From positions 106,871-138,870 of the forward strand of contig JBMYVL010000001.1 in the NCBI GenBank assembly GCA_049606355.1: a stretch of DNA of 32,000 nucleotides, written 5' to 3'. Position numbers and translations under genes: made by a program. The DNA comes from Opitutales bacterium (GTDB lineage: Bacteria; Verrucomicrobiota; Verrucomicrobiia; Opitutales; Coraliomargaritaceae). Shown here in pieces: positions 18 through 5,248 of this stretch. The notes below the pieces were generated by a model. That model worked only from the letters and a program-made list of their open reading frames with translations, did no database searches and had not been told where the DNA came from. Every line of letters starts with the position of its first letter. The stretch's first letter is position 1.

Positions 18-2333
18 ATGTCCGACTCCCTCCATTCGCAGACCCTCACCGGCGTGCTCGAGCGCATTATCTTTTTCAACGAAGAAAATGCCTACTGTGT
101 CGCTGAAATAGCCGTGGCCGAGGGCAAACAACCGATCACGGTCTTAGGGAATCTGCCTGGAGTGAACTGCGGTGAGACGCTGCAGTTGAGTGGGCAATGG
201 ACGCGCCACCCCAGCCACGGTGACCAATTCAAAATCACGCAGTTCAAATCGCAGTTACCCGCTTCGATTCACGGCATCCGTAAATACCTCGGTAGCGGCA
301 TGGTACACGGCATTGGCAAATCCTACGCCAAAAAAATCGTCGACCACTTCGGTGCCGATACCCTGCGAGTGATCAGCGAAGATTCTGGGCGCCTACACGA
401 GGTCCCCGGCATCGGTAAAACACGGGCGAAATCGATCAAAGCAGCCTGGGAAGCACAAGTTGCCGTACGCGATGTGATGGTCTTCCTGCAGACTTACGGT
501 GTCACACCGGCACAATGTGTACGCTTGGTTAAAAAATATGGCAGCGGCGCGAAACGAATTTTACAGGACGAGCCCTACCGCCTCGCCGAAGACATCGAGC
601 GCATCGGCTTTAAAACCGCAGATAAATTGGCACTCAATCTAGGCTTTCCAACCAACTGCAAGGAGCGCGTCGATGCTGGCTTGCTTTACACCATGCAAAC
701 ACTTGAAGACGCAGGGCATACGCTCGGTACACAGCAGGCGCTGGTCGAGCAGGCGCTCAGTCTGCTGGGCGTTGATGCGGCACTGATTCAACAGCGCATC
801 CGTGCGCTGCTAGAGCAAGGTAAACTGTTCGGTATCGAGGCCTTTACTCCCAAACAGGAATCCCTCGGCCCCGCCTGCCAACGTCCGCCGCTCGCTGGCG
901 CCGAGAAGCGTATCGCCACCGCACTACAGCGCATCGATACCACCGATTCCGCGATACCCCCAATCAAGATCGATGCTGCGGTAGCATGGGCTCAGGATAA
1001 AGCCGGTTTTACTTTTGCAGCGCAACAGGCGGCTGCTCTGAAACAAGCGCTCCAAGCGAAGGTCGCGGTCATTACCGGTGGGCCCGGCACGGGGAAGACC
1101 ACGATTTTACGCGCCATCGTTGATATCGCCCGCGCTAAACGTGCTCGCGTACAACTCGCCTCCCCTACGGGTCGAGCGGCGCAGCGCTTGGCTGAGGCGG
1201 CAGGAGCACCTGCCAGTACCATCCATCGACTTCTTAAATATGACGGTGCATCACGTAGCTTCGTCTACAATGCCGAAAATCCATTGCCCTGCGATCTCCT
1301 CATTGTTGATGAAGCCAGTATGCTGGATACCCGCCTCGCGGCCAATTTGTTCGACGCGGTCCCCAGCGCTGCACATCTCATCCTGGTCGGCGATGCGGAT
1401 CAGTTACCTTCCGTCGGCGCTGGCAATGTCCTTGGCGATTTGATGGCGGCGCCTCCCGCACAAGTGACGCGCCTGGATACGATCTTTCGCCAAGGAGAAA
1501 CCAGCGGGATCATCACCACTGCCCACGCTATCCTCAACGGCGAAACACACCCCGGCAAAACCAGTACCAGCTTACGCGCCCTCGATCCCAATCAAGACTT
1601 TACTTTTATTGAAGCCGAAGACGCCGATCAATGTGCGCAGGCTGTCTCCTATCTTGCCCGCGAGTACCTACCTAAAGCTCACGGCATCGATCCCATTAAG
1701 GATCTGCAAATACTGTCGCCGATGCACCGCGGGCTGGCAGGGATCGCCGCGCTCAATGCGGCCCTACAAGACAGTCTCAACCATACAGTGAAGGCGCAGT
1801 CACGACTACGCTCCGACCCCGACTATACCCCCGCCCGCCAAAGCCATTTCCGCGAAAAGACCGGCAAACCCCTCCCATCCGAACTCGCCTATGGCGCCAC
1901 CACTTTCCGTATCGGCGACAAGGTCATCCAAACCCGCAACAATTACGACAAAGCGATTTTTAACGGCGATACGGGCATCATACAGGGCATTAGCCCAGAC
2001 CGATCGGGGCTTACCGTTGATTTTGCCGGCGAAGCAGTTGAATTCACCAAAGGAGAGCTGGGTGAATTGCAGCTCGCCTACGCGATCAGTATCCACAAAA
2101 GCCAAGGGAGTGAGTATCCGATCGTCATCATTCCATTGCTCAAGCAGCACTACATGATGCTGCAGCGCAACTTAGTCTACACAGGGATTACCCGCGCCCG
2201 CAGAAAAGTCTATCTGGTCGGATCGGTCGATGCTTACGCCATGGCCATTAATAATCATAAGACCGAAGTGCGTCGCACCCACCTGCCCGCTCGCCTGAGA
2301 CAGGCGATGTCCAGCGAAGCGAAAAACGACTAA
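18..2333 (+). CDS. recD2: RecD2-type SF1 ATP-dependent DNA helicase
   Basis: 771-aa ORF with an ATG start. SF1 helicase motifs are present: GGPGTGKTT (Walker A), LIVDEASM (Walker B), LVGDADQLPSVGAGN, SIHKSQGSEYP and VYTGITRARRKV. The N-terminal helix-hairpin-helix-like repeats (GIGKSYAKKIVDHFG, GIGKTRAKSI) are typical of stand-alone RecD2 rather than RecBCD-type RecD. Confidence 0.9.
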   Translation: MSDSLHSQTLTGVLERIIFFNEENAYCVAEIAVAEGKQPITVLGNLPGVNCGETLQLSGQWTRHPSHGDQFKITQFKSQLPASIHGIRKYLGSGMVHGIGKSYAKKIVDHFGADTLRVISEDSGRLHEVPGIGKTRAKSIKAAWEAQVAVRDVMVFLQTYGVTPAQCVRLVKKYGSGAKRILQDEPYRLAEDIERIGFKTADKLALNLGFPTNCKERVDAGLLYTMQTLEDAGHTLGTQQALVEQALSLLGVDAALIQQRIRALLEQGKLFGIEAFTPKQESLGPACQRPPLAGAEKRIATALQRIDTTDSAIPPIKIDAAVAWAQDKAGFTFAAQQAAALKQALQAKVAVITGGPGTGKTTILRAIVDIARAKRARVQLASPTGRAAQRLAEAAGAPASTIHRLLKYDGASRSFVYNAENPLPCDLLIVDEASMLDTRLAANLFDAVPSAAHLILVGDADQLPSVGAGNVLGDLMAAPPAQVTRLDTIFRQGETSGIITTAHAILNGETHPGKTSTSLRALDPNQDFTFIEAEDADQCAQAVSYLAREYLPKAHGIDPIKDLQILSPMHRGLAGIAALNAALQDSLNHTVKAQSRLRSDPDYTPARQSHFREKTGKPLPSELAYGATTFRIGDKVIQTRNNYDKAIFNGDTGIIQGISPDRSGLTVDFAGEAVEFTKGELGELQLAYAISIHKSQGSEYPIVIIPLLKQHYMMLQRNLVYTGITRARRKVYLVGSVDAYAMAINNHKTEVRRTHLPARLRQAMSSEAKND

Positions 2334-2381
2334 TTGGTAAGTTCCGCAGCGTCCCTGCTATTGTTTGGCAGGACAACCACC

Positions 2382-3917
2382 GTGAACTTACGCCTCATTT
2401 TTGGAGATCAACTGTCGACACAGTTATCCAGCCTCAGCGACCTCGACCCACAGGAGGATTGCTTGTGCCTGTTTGAAGTGCGCCACGAGGCCACTCAAAT
2501 CAAACATCATAAAAAGAAAATCGCGTTTCTGTTTGCGGCCATGCGACATTTTGCCGCCGAGCTTCGTGAACGCGGCTACCATGTTCATTATAGCCGATTG
2601 GATGACCCCGAAAATACCGGTACTTTTTTCGGTGAGCTACAGCGTCTGGTCCAACAGCTCAAACCGGATAAAATAATCCTCACGGCACCCAGTGAGTTCC
2701 GCATTGAACAAGAGGTGAGCACTTGGTCGAAGCGTCTTGGTATAAGCATCGAGCAGCGTGAAGATACACGCTTCCTGGCCACTCGAACTGCCTTCCGAGA
2801 CTGGGCGGCAAACCGCAAACAGTTGCGCATGGAGTTCTTCTACCGAGAAATGCGCCGCACACATGCGATCTTAATGGATGGCGAGCATCCCGTCGGCAAT
2901 CAGTGGAATTTCGATAGTGAAAACCGCAAGCGCCCGCCAGCGGATCATATTAACCCTCAAACCTACACCGCGACTCCGGATGCAATCACCTGCGAAGTGC
3001 TGGATCTGGTCGAACGCGAGTTTGGCGATCACTTCGGCGACCTGCACCCGTTTCATTTCGCAGTCACACGCACCGAGGCATTACAAGCTTTTGAGCAATT
3101 TATCGACAAGCGCCTCCGCCACTTCGGTGACTACCAGGATGCGATGCTGACCGCTGATCCGTGGATGTACCACAGCCATATTGGACATTACCTAAACTGC
3201 GGACTATTACTGCCTTTGGAGTGCCTTCATAAAGTAGAGCAGGCCTACCGTAGCGGTAACGTGCCCCTCAATGCCGCGGAGGGCTTCATTCGGCAGATCC
3301 TCGGCTGGCGTGAATTTGTGCGTGGGATTTACTGGCTACACATGCCCGACTATGCGGACTGCAATGCGCTTCAGGCGAAGCGTCCGCTGCCTGCAGTCTA
3401 TTGGGCAGCACCCACACAGATGAACTGCCTGCACCAGTGTGTGCGCAGCACCGAGCAACATGCCTACGCACACCACATCCAACGGCTTATGGTCTTGGGT
3501 AACTTTGCCTTGCTGGCAGGACTCAATCCAAGAGAAGTCAACGAGTGGTACTGGATTGTATATGCGGATGCGTATGAGTGGGTCGAACTGCCCAACGTTA
3601 GCGGCATGGTGCTCTTTGCTGATGGCGGGCGGTTGGCCTCGAAACCTTACGCTGCGAGCGGTGCTTACATCAATAAAATGTCCGACTACTGTAAAGCTTG
3701 CCGCTATAAGGTAAGTAAAAAAAATGGACCGGATGCCTGCCCCTTTAATTACCTCTACTGGGATTTCCTCATCCGCAACCGTGAGCAACTGGGGCGCAAC
3801 CCTCGGCTCGGCATGCCGTATCGTACTCTGGATAAAATGACTACCGAAAAGATCGCTGCCATTCAGAGCGATGCCACGCGATTCTTGACTGCGCTGGATG
3901 CAGGTGATCCCGTATAA
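2382..3917 (+). CDS. phrB: FeS-cluster cryptochrome/photolyase family protein (FeS-BCP/CryPro, PhrB/CryB-like, probable (6-4) photolyase)
   Basis: Recognised by eye as the COG3046 photolyase-related family from LRLIFGDQLS, HHKKKIAFLFAAMRHFA and HIQRLMVLGNF. Cys spacing C-x2-C-x12-C (YCKACRYKVSKKNGPDAC) plus an upstream Cys (MNCLHQC) matches the [4Fe-4S] ligand pattern of PhrB-type enzymes. The ORF opens at TTG 2334 directly after the recD2 stop. GTG 2382 (VNLRLIF...) gives the family-typical N-terminus, so the start is uncertain by 48 nt. Confidence 0.85.
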   Translation: MNLRLIFGDQLSTQLSSLSDLDPQEDCLCLFEVRHEATQIKHHKKKIAFLFAAMRHFAAELRERGYHVHYSRLDDPENTGTFFGELQRLVQQLKPDKIILTAPSEFRIEQEVSTWSKRLGISIEQREDTRFLATRTAFRDWAANRKQLRMEFFYREMRRTHAILMDGEHPVGNQWNFDSENRKRPPADHINPQTYTATPDAITCEVLDLVEREFGDHFGDLHPFHFAVTRTEALQAFEQFIDKRLRHFGDYQDAMLTADPWMYHSHIGHYLNCGLLLPLECLHKVEQAYRSGNVPLNAAEGFIRQILGWREFVRGIYWLHMPDYADCNALQAKRPLPAVYWAAPTQMNCLHQCVRSTEQHAYAHHIQRLMVLGNFALLAGLNPREVNEWYWIVYADAYEWVELPNVSGMVLFADGGRLASKPYAASGAYINKMSDYCKACRYKVSKKNGPDACPFNYLYWDFLIRNREQLGRNPRLGMPYRTLDKMTTEKIAAIQSDATRFLTALDAGDPV

Positions 3918-3933
3918 CTTGAGTCGGTCAACA

Positions 3934-4680
3934 ATGTCGCCCAAACCAACTCTGGAGCAGCGCCTCGCTGCCACTCGCCGCCCAAATAATCGTAGCGTGA
4001 TCATGCGCCAGCAGTGGCACTCATTGCTGTATCTCCACTGGGCGGTTGATCCGGCACTCTTGACTTCCCGACTGCCGGCGGGCCTATCCATCGATACTTT
4101 TGACGGTCGCGCTTATCTTGGCATCGTACCCTTTTATATGCATGGCTTACGCCCACGCTTCGGACCTCCTGCACCAGGCATCTCCTATTTTCCTGAACTC
4201 AACCTACGTACTTATGTCTACGATACAAAAGGCCGTCCGGGTGTCTGGTTTTTCTCCCTCGATGCCGATAGTCGCCTATCAGTATGCATCGCACGCCGTG
4301 CCTTTAGCCTCAATTACCACTATGCACGCATGCGCTACCGACGCAGCAACTCGGGTCATGTGAGGCTAACTTGCCAAAGACCGAACCAAGCGGAGCAGCG
4401 CTACGCCTATCGAGCCAGGCAATCGATCGGCCCGGCACAACCCGGCTCACTGGCTTTCTTTCTCACTGAGCGCTACTATCTCTTCGCGCAGACGAAGCAC
4501 GGCGACTTACGCATCGGCCAAATCTACCATACGCCGCATCACTTGTTTGATACAGATATCAGCACCTACAGCAAAGCGCTCTTCAAATTGAATGGTTTTA
4601 CGGAGCCGAAAGATGACTATACGCATGCCATCCTAAGTCCACAGGTCGACGTATCGATTTATTCACTACAAAAAATATAA
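3934..4680 (+). CDS. DUF2071 (YqjF) family protein, function unknown
   Basis: Family-typical blocks are WHSLLYLHWAVDPALL, LPAGLSIDTFDGRAYLGIVPFYM, FPELNLRTYV and PGVWFFSLDADSRLSVCIARRAFSLNYHYARM. ATG 3934 lies 16 nt after the photolyase stop. The track ORF opens earlier (3898) but would overlap the photolyase. Confidence 0.85.
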   Translation: MSPKPTLEQRLAATRRPNNRSVIMRQQWHSLLYLHWAVDPALLTSRLPAGLSIDTFDGRAYLGIVPFYMHGLRPRFGPPAPGISYFPELNLRTYVYDTKGRPGVWFFSLDADSRLSVCIARRAFSLNYHYARMRYRRSNSGHVRLTCQRPNQAEQRYAYRARQSIGPAQPGSLAFFLTERYYLFAQTKHGDLRIGQIYHTPHHLFDTDISTYSKALFKLNGFTEPKDDYTHAILSPQVDVSIYSLQKI

Positions 4681-4681
4681 G

Positions 4682-5248
4682 ATGCCGCATCGCTACATCT
4701 CTTGCTGGACTGACACGTTCCCGAAGATCGGCATCGATCTCGGTTACAGTGCGCAACAGCCCTCTTGTGGATTGGCTTTCGAGAACGGCACCGAGGCAAT
4801 CGCTTTGAAATTCGGCGACTGCCTGAACGCAGTCACCGAACAAATCAGTAAAAATGGCCCACACCACCTCATCGTGGAAGCGGTTCTCTCGACTTACCAT
4901 CGTCCTGACGGCAACCCCGACCTACGCGGCACATTTGAAAAAGGGCGTGGCTGGTATCACGGCCCCGGTGTGAGTACCTACGCGGCAGCATTGCGCTTCC
5001 TGACGGTGCTTGATGAGCAACTTCCTCCAGCAGTACAATTACCCCTAACAGAGGGATTCTTAAGCTATAAGCCAGCACGTACAACTCACATTGAAGATGC
5101 CCAGCGACTCATCAAAGAGTACGGCAACGCCGAGTGCTTCAGCCCACGTGAAGGCAGTACTCCGATTTGTGCAGCGATCCACACACCGCCTGAAATTCGT
5201 CGCTATAACTCACCCCGACGTCCGCAACGAAACGCTGACACGACTTGA
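4682..5248 (+). CDS. hypothetical protein, predicted RNase H-fold / RuvC-like nuclease (motif-level call only)
   Basis: 188-aa ORF whose ATG lies 1 nt after the DUF2071 stop (TAAgATG). Three motifs appear in RuvC-like order and spacing: KIGIDLGYS (Asp19), HHLIVEAVLS (Glu66) and THIEDAQRL (His136-x2-Asp139-Ala). Coding status is fairly secure from tight packing in the operon; the nuclease assignment is inference. Confidence 0.55.
   Translation: MPHRYISCWTDTFPKIGIDLGYSAQQPSCGLAFENGTEAIALKFGDCLNAVTEQISKNGPHHLIVEAVLSTYHRPDGNPDLRGTFEKGRGWYHGPGVSTYAAALRFLTVLDEQLPPAVQLPLTEGFLSYKPARTTHIEDAQRLIKEYGNAECFSPREGSTPICAAIHTPPEIRRYNSPRRPQRNADTT

Follow-up and report, generated by a model that had tools for sequence, protein, structure and literature searches.

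A compact RuvC-fold protein family encoded next to photolyase and DNA repair genes in marine Opitutales is probably a UV-damage repair nuclease

The 188-aa gene described here very probably encodes a protein with an RNase H-like fold, as judged from structure models. On balance, and with little more than even confidence, we favour the view that it is a metal-dependent nuclease of RuvC fold from an unnamed family acting in UV/DNA-damage repair. The modelled fold and the pattern of conserved residues make it likely that the protein is a nuclease, and a DNA-damage role of the family is a fairly likely one, held slightly less firmly. The gene is part of a window of 32,000 nt, which is the whole stretch of DNA that was analyzed. 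Features of the window are compiled in Table 1.

Table 1. Positions of genes and of putative functional residues in the 32,000-nt window
Feature	Position	Strand	Description and basis
RecD2-type helicase	18..2333	+	first gene of the same-strand cluster; Pfam AAA_30, HHH_RecD2, OB_YrrC
FeS-BCP/PhrB-type photolyase-related gene	2334..3917	+	Pfam DPRP, E 8e-82
DUF2071 gene	3898..4680	+	Pfam PF09844, E 8.5e-66
188-aa gene of the unnamed RuvC-fold family	4682..5248	+	ORF, homologues, AF2 models, fold matches
D19 codon	4736..4738	+	end of β1, motif GIDLG; predicted metal ligand; Asp in 131/132 ungapped sequences
E66 codon	4877..4879	+	end of β4, motif EAVLS; predicted metal ligand; 137/137
Residues 70-96	4889..4969	+	family-specific insertion between β4 and long helix; GNP..RG.FE..R.WY.G.G; most conserved block
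E124 codon	5051..5053	+	β5, motif EGFLS; 135/135 ungapped sequences
H136-x-x-D139	5087..5098	+	H136 codon 5087-5089, D139 codon 5096-5098; first turn of the helix after β5; H..DA as in RuvC/Cas9 RuvC-III
Tandem double UvrA, 1888 aa	5306..10972	+	NCBIfam UvrA 1830 bits, residues 5-955, plus second unit

The 188-aa gene and the distribution of its family

The reading frame extends from an ATG to a TGA codon and was confirmed in the window. Its start codon lies 1 nt past the DUF2071 stop, and its end precedes the GTG of the 1888-aa UvrA gene by 57 nt. An earlier note, made from the DNA alone, had listed this frame as an orphan. The recovery of homologue clusters indicates that the frame is a real gene and that it is no orphan. 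A word-indexed search (E<=1e-3) retrieved 190 homologue clusters at 90% identity, all of approx. 180 aa, and the few named members among them are 'hypothetical proteins' of marine Verrucomicrobiota. When 1.84 billion representatives were searched exhaustively with an HMM, 402 clusters at 50% identity were recovered, and 244 of these had E<=1e-10.

Most members of the family derive from marine Opitutales, while a few belong to Planctomycetota, Chloroflexota and other groups. The gene is carried by 51 of the 101 genomes of the window's own taxonomic family, and in a sample of 401 genomes from the phylum it was confined to that taxonomic family. A scan of GTDB species genomes revealed 57 loci, the majority in Puniceicoccaceae, Coraliomargaritaceae or Opitutales MAGs. 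Distant copies with 41-46% identity were found in bins labelled Pirellulales, Phycisphaerae, Dehalococcoidia, deltaproteobacterium, Hyphomicrobiales and Elusimicrobiota; one Spirochaetales bin and a second Pirellulales bin gave partial matches of 53-55%. The source genome of the window comprises 1.76 Mb and is 99.96% complete. The median pI of the family is approx. 7 and thus not basic. A promoter and terminator scan scored below chance.

The nearest matches of the predicted structure are RuvC-type nucleases

Structure prediction with AF2 on the basis of 137 diverse homologues resulted in a model with a pLDDT of 94.6 and a pTM of 0.90 without any weak segment. With 30 close homologues the pLDDT was 82.5 and the loop 70-95 was poorly modelled. 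For the insertion (residues 70-96), the pLDDT rose from a low level with the shallow alignment to 95 or more with the deep one. DSSP assigned the same elements in both models: β1 (15-19), β2 (29-33), β3 (40-42), α1 (44-58), β4 (62-66), the insertion, α2 (95-113), β5 (120-126), α3 (136-145) and a small C-terminal β segment. The order β1-β2-β3-α1-β4-(insertion)-α2-β5-α3 corresponds to the RNase H-like topology with its five-stranded mixed sheet and C-terminal helix.

Both AF2 models were compared with 48,161 PDB representatives by exhaustive structural alignment using VIA-align, and the top 50 matches were inspected. With either model, these matches were almost all RuvC-clade RNase H-like proteins. 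One of the leading matches was RuvC of Lactococcus phage 67 (Z 7.9-8.2, 114-115 residues, rmsd 3.5-3.6). The RuvC matches overall reached Z 7.1-8.2 with 111-116 aligned residues and an rmsd of 3.5-4.2, a borderline Z of 7-8 that VIA-align calls common for unmatched models. Cas9 RuvC domains (Z 7.5-8.3), YqgF/RuvX proteins (Z 6.4-7.5), the poxvirus (canarypox) resolvase (Z 7.3) and Thermus thermophilus RuvC (Z 7.1-7.2) were also retrieved. They were followed by lower matches to terminase nucleases (TerL), Tex/Spt6, MOC1, Ydc2, IscB and Cas12. Since the Z values lie in the common range, the argument is based on the consistency of the list and on topology rather than on any single score. The proteins of the list are those of clade D of the RNase H-like superfamily, which in addition contains the uncharacterized DUF429 (Majorek et al. 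2014, PMC3985635).

Foldseek detected RNase H, RuvC and TerL at E values of only 0.02-0.2. In the ESM Atlas, the nearest annotated cluster was DUF429, followed by RuvC, Tex-YqgF and RuvX; the similarity to DUF429 (feature score 0.92, TM 0.60) is only a lead. The RNase H-like domain of UvrC and EndoV were absent from the top 50 structural matches, which does not exclude them. All in all, the topology of the models supports the RNase H-like fold expected in the earlier note, and their nearest structures, at borderline Z values, are RuvC-type nucleases.

Conserved residues of the putative active site

Conservation was counted in an alignment of 137 diverse sequences and separately in a set of 30 close homologues. 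The earlier note had recognized D19, E66, H136 and D139 as a D / E / H-x-x-D-A triad of RuvC type. The four residues occupy the positions given there and are invariant in all 30 close homologues, so that the triad stands for the 188-aa protein and its close relatives. In the diverse alignment, however, D139 is not universal. Position 139 is occupied by Asp in 99 sequences, by Glu in three and by Val in 32, i.e. in approx. one quarter of the members, and the triad therefore needs revising. Position 136 contains His in 115 and Asp in 16 of the 137 sequences, and A140 is Ala in 130/137.

With regard to conservation, D19 and E66 are equalled by four residues that had not been mentioned before, E124, E86 (135/137), R82 (135/136) and W91 (136/137); P79 is found in 133/137 sequences. 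According to the alignment, the putative family-wide core is composed of D19, E66, E124 and a His or Asp at position 136. The acidic residues conserved at the end of β1 and on β4 are those expected of RNase H-like proteins, and in the models D19, E66, E124 and H136/D139 are predicted to sit at the canonical catalytic positions of the fold. The conserved insertion at residues 70-96 is an obvious candidate for substrate recognition. In an informal look at the RuvC alignment of the phylum, which is not a test, no counterpart of this insertion was seen.

Relationship to named protein families

The profile search suggested in the earlier note did not lead to a nuclease family. Neither the single protein nor 62 diverse members matched a profile in Pfam, NCBIfam, PADLOC, PHROGs or the PDB sequences, and this includes the anti-phage defence models of PADLOC searched with the 188-aa protein. 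Among the 62 members, Pfam RuvC (PF02075) was not matched at E<=1, DUF429 (PF04250) was matched by none in hmmscan, and the YqgF/RuvX profile (PF03652) was likewise unmatched. Profile-profile comparison was performed with hhalign against small home-made alignments from genomes of the same phylum. It resulted in non-significant probabilities of 0.5% for 30 RuvC sequences and of 0.3% for seven DUF429 sequences. Short pieces of these non-significant matches placed E66 on the catalytic Glu of RuvC and H..DA on DD..DA of DUF429. As no significant profile-profile link was obtained, the protein, with its RuvC-like scaffold, is by sequence no member of RuvC, RuvX or DUF429.

The RuvC (PF02075) and Cas9 RuvC domains share with the 188-aa protein the core topology, the Asp at the end of β1, the Glu at the end of β4 and the H/D-x-x-D-A motif on the helix after β5, and they are its best structural matches (Z 7.1-8.3, within the common range). 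The residues of the motif are spaced by 47 and 70 positions in the 188-aa protein compared to 60 and 72 in the RuvC proteins of the phylum. In contrast to RuvC, the family contains a conserved insertion of approx. 27 residues after β4 and an extra invariant Glu on β5. Moreover, the 188-aa protein has an extra C-terminal β segment (151-175), and the last Asp is dispensable in approx. one quarter of the members. The distribution differs as well. RuvC was present in 41/41 genomes sampled from the phylum, and the source genome has its own RuvC, whereas the 188-aa family is patchy.

YqgF/RuvX is another small, single-domain RNase H-like protein with structural similarity to the 188-aa protein. RuvX is near-universal and has a housekeeping function, whereas the 188-aa family is accessory; the source genome has its own RuvX, and a sequence match was not obtained.

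DUF429 (PF04250; COG2410/COG4328/COG4923) comprises predicted RuvC-clade nucleases, and no other named family is nearer to the 188-aa protein in the ESM Atlas. Its members are single-domain proteins of approx. 200 aa with the same order of elements: G-x-D on β1, an acidic residue on β4, a Glu after β5 and D/H..DA near the C-terminus. Like the 188-aa family, they occur in a non-mobile, lineage-conserved context (PMC3985635). They differ by an Asp instead of a Glu on β4 and by the lack of the GNP..R..FE..W loop, and a profile link is absent. DUF429 genes were encountered in three genomes of the window's taxonomic family that lack the 188-aa family (G018, G063 and G072). The idea that DUF429 replaces the 188-aa family in sister genomes was dropped, as the neighbourhoods are unrelated; three genomes are too few for judging whether the distributions are complementary.

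UVDE/Uve1 and the C-terminal endonuclease domain of UvrC are functional analogues by gene context only. Both nucleases incise beside UV photoproducts, and the 5'-incision domain of UvrC is RNase H-like. UVDE differs from the 188-aa protein in being a TIM-barrel enzyme. Sequence similarity to the 188-aa protein was seen for neither of them, and the UvrC domain was outside the top 50 structural matches.

Genes of the family are often located next to photolyase and repair genes

In the window, the 188-aa gene is the fourth gene of a same-strand array (RecD2, photolyase-related gene, DUF2071, 188-aa gene, double UvrA). The neighbours at the 57 loci were surveyed by tblastn with the proteins of the window and by unbiased clustering of all adjoining ORFs. 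The loci are mutually related, and the counts given here are not independent. The commonest partner was a homologue of the FeS-BCP photolyase (PhrB), which was located directly upstream in approx. 21/57 loci according to tblastn. In approx. 12/57 loci the family gene adjoins DUF2071, which is upstream in some of them and downstream, often overlapping by 4 nt, in others. A TIGR03643/DUF2805 gene was present directly upstream in 10-11 loci, and genes for classical photolyases or cryptochromes were at most three genes away in approx. nine. The double UvrA was the downstream neighbour in only 7/57 loci. Further neighbours were a DNA polymerase I gene (PolA) immediately upstream across an 18-nt gap and, in a Pirellulales MAG, UvrB in the same upstream position. 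RmuC was observed as the next downstream gene, and MutS just past DUF2071.

Taken together, a repair or photolyase-linked gene was adjacent to the family gene in 31/53 loci and at most two genes away in 34/53; in approx. 19/53 loci no recognized repair gene was found within two genes. The neighbours of several distant members were uninformative, and in two genomes (G306 and G201) neither UvrA nor PhrB was found within approx. 9 kb of the family gene. The arrangements are diverse (X = family gene): PhrB-X, photolyase-(ARH/4HBT)-DUF2805-X, DUF2071-X-UvrA, X-DUF2071-MutS, PolA-X, UvrB-X and X-RmuC. This variety, together with the UvrB case in another phylum, suggests that the linkage to repair genes has been selected repeatedly. 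Phyletic co-occurrence was dropped as evidence. It says little because PhrB and DUF2071 are present in approx. 80% of the genomes of the window's taxonomic family (83/101 and 77/101, respectively).

The TIGR03643/DUF2805 gene codes for a small protein of 80-130 aa (upstream in L060, L063, L073, L075, L077, L078, L082, L086, L088 and L089). It often overlaps the start of the family gene and is often preceded by a classical photolyase gene and an ADP-ribosylglycohydrolase or thioesterase gene. These loci look like a second, distinct photolyase-linked module. The pairing with DUF2071, observed in the window and at L057, L062, L079, L082, L084, L085 and L090, comes in both gene orders: DUF2071 is upstream with a 1-nt gap in the window and downstream with a 4-nt overlap elsewhere, and it is followed by MutS in L057, L062 and L090.

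The double UvrA and the repair genes of the source genome

According to the earlier note, the UvrA-like sensor downstream of the 188-aa gene lacks UvrB and UvrC partners. This idea was rejected. The same genome encodes UvrB (1008 bits), UvrC and a second, canonical UvrA of approx. 960 aa on another contig (G000:C7:743-3508). With 1160 bits, the canonical UvrA outscores either unit of the fusion. Canonical RuvC and RuvX genes are present as well, the latter at G000:C1:49354-49743. Given this set of UvrB, UvrC, canonical UvrA, RuvC and RuvX, the 188-aa gene does not replace a missing housekeeping nuclease, and UvrA has partners.

The first unit of the fusion matches UvrA end to end, and the Pfam domain UvrA_inter (PF17760, 'UvrA interaction domain') was detected in two stretches of the double UvrA. 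The second unit is devoid of UvrA model positions 288-389, which correspond roughly to the insertion/DNA-binding domain. Related MAGs repeatedly contain double UvrA homologues with 66-75% identity. The UvrC frame (G000:C1:151122-152495) encodes only 500 aa and matches positions 1-232 and 355-572 of the model. The missing middle of the model may reflect a shortened linker or a divergent region.

Proposed function and alternative explanations

From the fold, the conserved residues and the gene linkage we infer a nuclease activity, a metal site, a substrate and a physical partnership as follows. The 188-aa protein would be a single-domain metal-dependent nuclease from the RuvC / YqgF / Cas9-RuvC / DUF429 branch of the RNase H-like superfamily. 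D19, E66, E124 and H/D136, with D139 where present, would hold one or two divalent cations, and the bound cations would hydrolyse a phosphodiester bond. Substrate specificity may be provided by the 70-96 loop with R82, E86 and W91. The target of the protein would be UV-damaged DNA or an intermediate of repair, and the protein would work alongside photolyase or NER components or downstream of them. Such a substrate appears most likely because the genes travel with photolyases, a small photolyase-associated protein, DUF2071, UvrA, UvrB, PolA and MutS in surface-ocean bacteria. Against this explanation stand the missing profile link to nucleases, the borderline Z values, the Val at position 139 in approx. 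one quarter of the members, the neutral pI and the approx. 19/53 loci without a repair gene. A more specific version is tentative and rather unlikely to hold in detail. In this version, the protein is a UV-lesion endonuclease and thus an RNase H-fold analogue of UVDE, which nicks DNA at (6-4)/Dewar or CPD photoproducts or, in the dark, processes lesions to which photolyase is bound. Its partners, acting as lesion sensors, would be the FeS-BCP photolyase, DUF2071 and/or the double UvrA.

The proposal of the earlier note, according to which the protein is the incision subunit dedicated to the double UvrA encoded downstream, for excision independent of UvrB and UvrC, is the least likely of the alternatives. 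It is suggested by the position of the gene just upstream of the 1888-aa UvrA gene on the same strand, an adjacency seen in 7/57 loci, and the double UvrA is a paralogue beside a canonical UvrA, so it might have partners of its own. However, UvrB and UvrC are encoded in the genome, the fusion carries two PF17760 stretches, and most family members are not beside any UvrA, G306 and G201 being devoid of both UvrA and PhrB nearby. A resolvase acting structure-specifically on Holliday junctions, stalled forks or flaps, i.e. a second RuvC/RuvX-like enzyme in recombinational repair, is unlikely as well. In its favour, the best structural matches are junction resolvases, the protein displays the D / E / H..D layout, and RecD2, RmuC, PolA and ligase-associated MBL exonuclease genes are among the neighbours. 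In contrast, the dominant linkage is to photolyases and not to recombination genes, and the large conserved insertion has no visible counterpart in RuvC by informal comparison. Moreover, canonical RuvC and RuvX are already encoded in the genome; RuvC is found in all 41 sampled genomes of the phylum, the 188-aa family in approx. half of the related genomes.

An activity on RNA or RNA:DNA hybrids in the manner of YqgF or RNase H, e.g. on R-loops at UV-stalled transcription, would fit the YqgF/RuvX proteins and the YqgF domains of Tex/Spt6 among the best fold matches. It would also fit the fusion of one relative to RNase HI and the DEAD-box helicase downstream in five loci (gene cluster c6 in seven). 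Against it, this fusion is a single metagenomic protein, the helicase is limited to one clade, and photolyase, UvrA, UvrB, PolA and MutS as neighbours point to DNA. We consider such an activity a shade less probable than a resolvase. A function other than that of a nuclease has about the same low probability as the resolvase. The RNase H-like scaffold might serve another reaction or function as an accessory or binding subunit, e.g. for the photolyase, DUF2071 or a cofactor. The absence of a sequence link to nuclease families, the neutral pI and the location of the most conserved block in a loop outside the classical motifs are in line with it, and kinases as well as the non-catalytic domains of Tex/Spt6 likewise adopt RNase H-like folds. 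The core acidic residues are usually lost from RNase H-like domains without catalytic function. In the 188-aa family, by contrast, Asp and Glu are invariant at both core catalytic positions, and together with a third invariant Glu and the His or Asp on the C-terminal helix they are hard to explain without metal catalysis. The pairing with DUF2071, which has an ADC-like fold (PMC4520260), and the deacetylase-family neighbour hint at small-molecule chemistry.

Novelty and implications

The superfamily and its general chemistry are known, whereas the 188-aa family is unnamed and uncharacterized; it stands out by its conserved insertion and by an additional invariant Glu. In a literature search, no paper was found that connects a protein of this type with photolyases. 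TIGR03643/DUF2805, DUF2071 and the 188-aa family form a recurrent, unexplained photolyase-adjacent module in sunlit-ocean bacteria. Assigning one of its members a catalytic fold, with a predicted active site open to experiment, offers an entry point to this module and could point to a repair route coupling direct reversal to excision. In addition, the nuclease scaffolds are extended by a well-conserved, compact family of RuvC fold (approx. 180 aa) whose putative substrate loop is distinctive. If the protein is a UV-lesion endonuclease, streamlined surface-ocean bacteria would gain a light-independent back-up to photoreactivation. Should it turn out to be a structure-specific nuclease of an ordinary kind, no more is gained than a name for approx. 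400 unannotated protein clusters.

Longer relatives and additional neighbours

The metagenomic protein P0171 (367 aa) combines a relative of the family (residues 27-183) with a C-terminal RNase HI domain (residues 232-358). Two further long relatives, P0272 (588 aa) and P0273 (386 aa), have extensions without a match to any family, and the N-terminal part of the 588-aa protein gave no lead. A dedicated search for long fused forms of the family found none, which is weak evidence.

In one clade (L067-L070, L072 and L080; titles Opitutaceae BACL24, Opitutia and Puniceicoccaceae), the family gene starts 6 nt past the end of a gene of the histone-deacetylase family (PF00850, approx. 300 aa), and no photolyase is located nearby. 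The DEAD-box helicase, which follows the family gene in five loci by neighbour count and whose gene cluster c6 is present in seven, likewise belongs to one clade. A metallo-beta-lactamase/RMMBL exonuclease-like gene of approx. 330 aa is located near the family gene on the opposite strand in L059, L061, L071 and L095; its product is presumably similar to the ligase-associated DNA-damage-response exonuclease. An unannotated ORF of 466 aa follows the RMMBL gene in L059 and L071.
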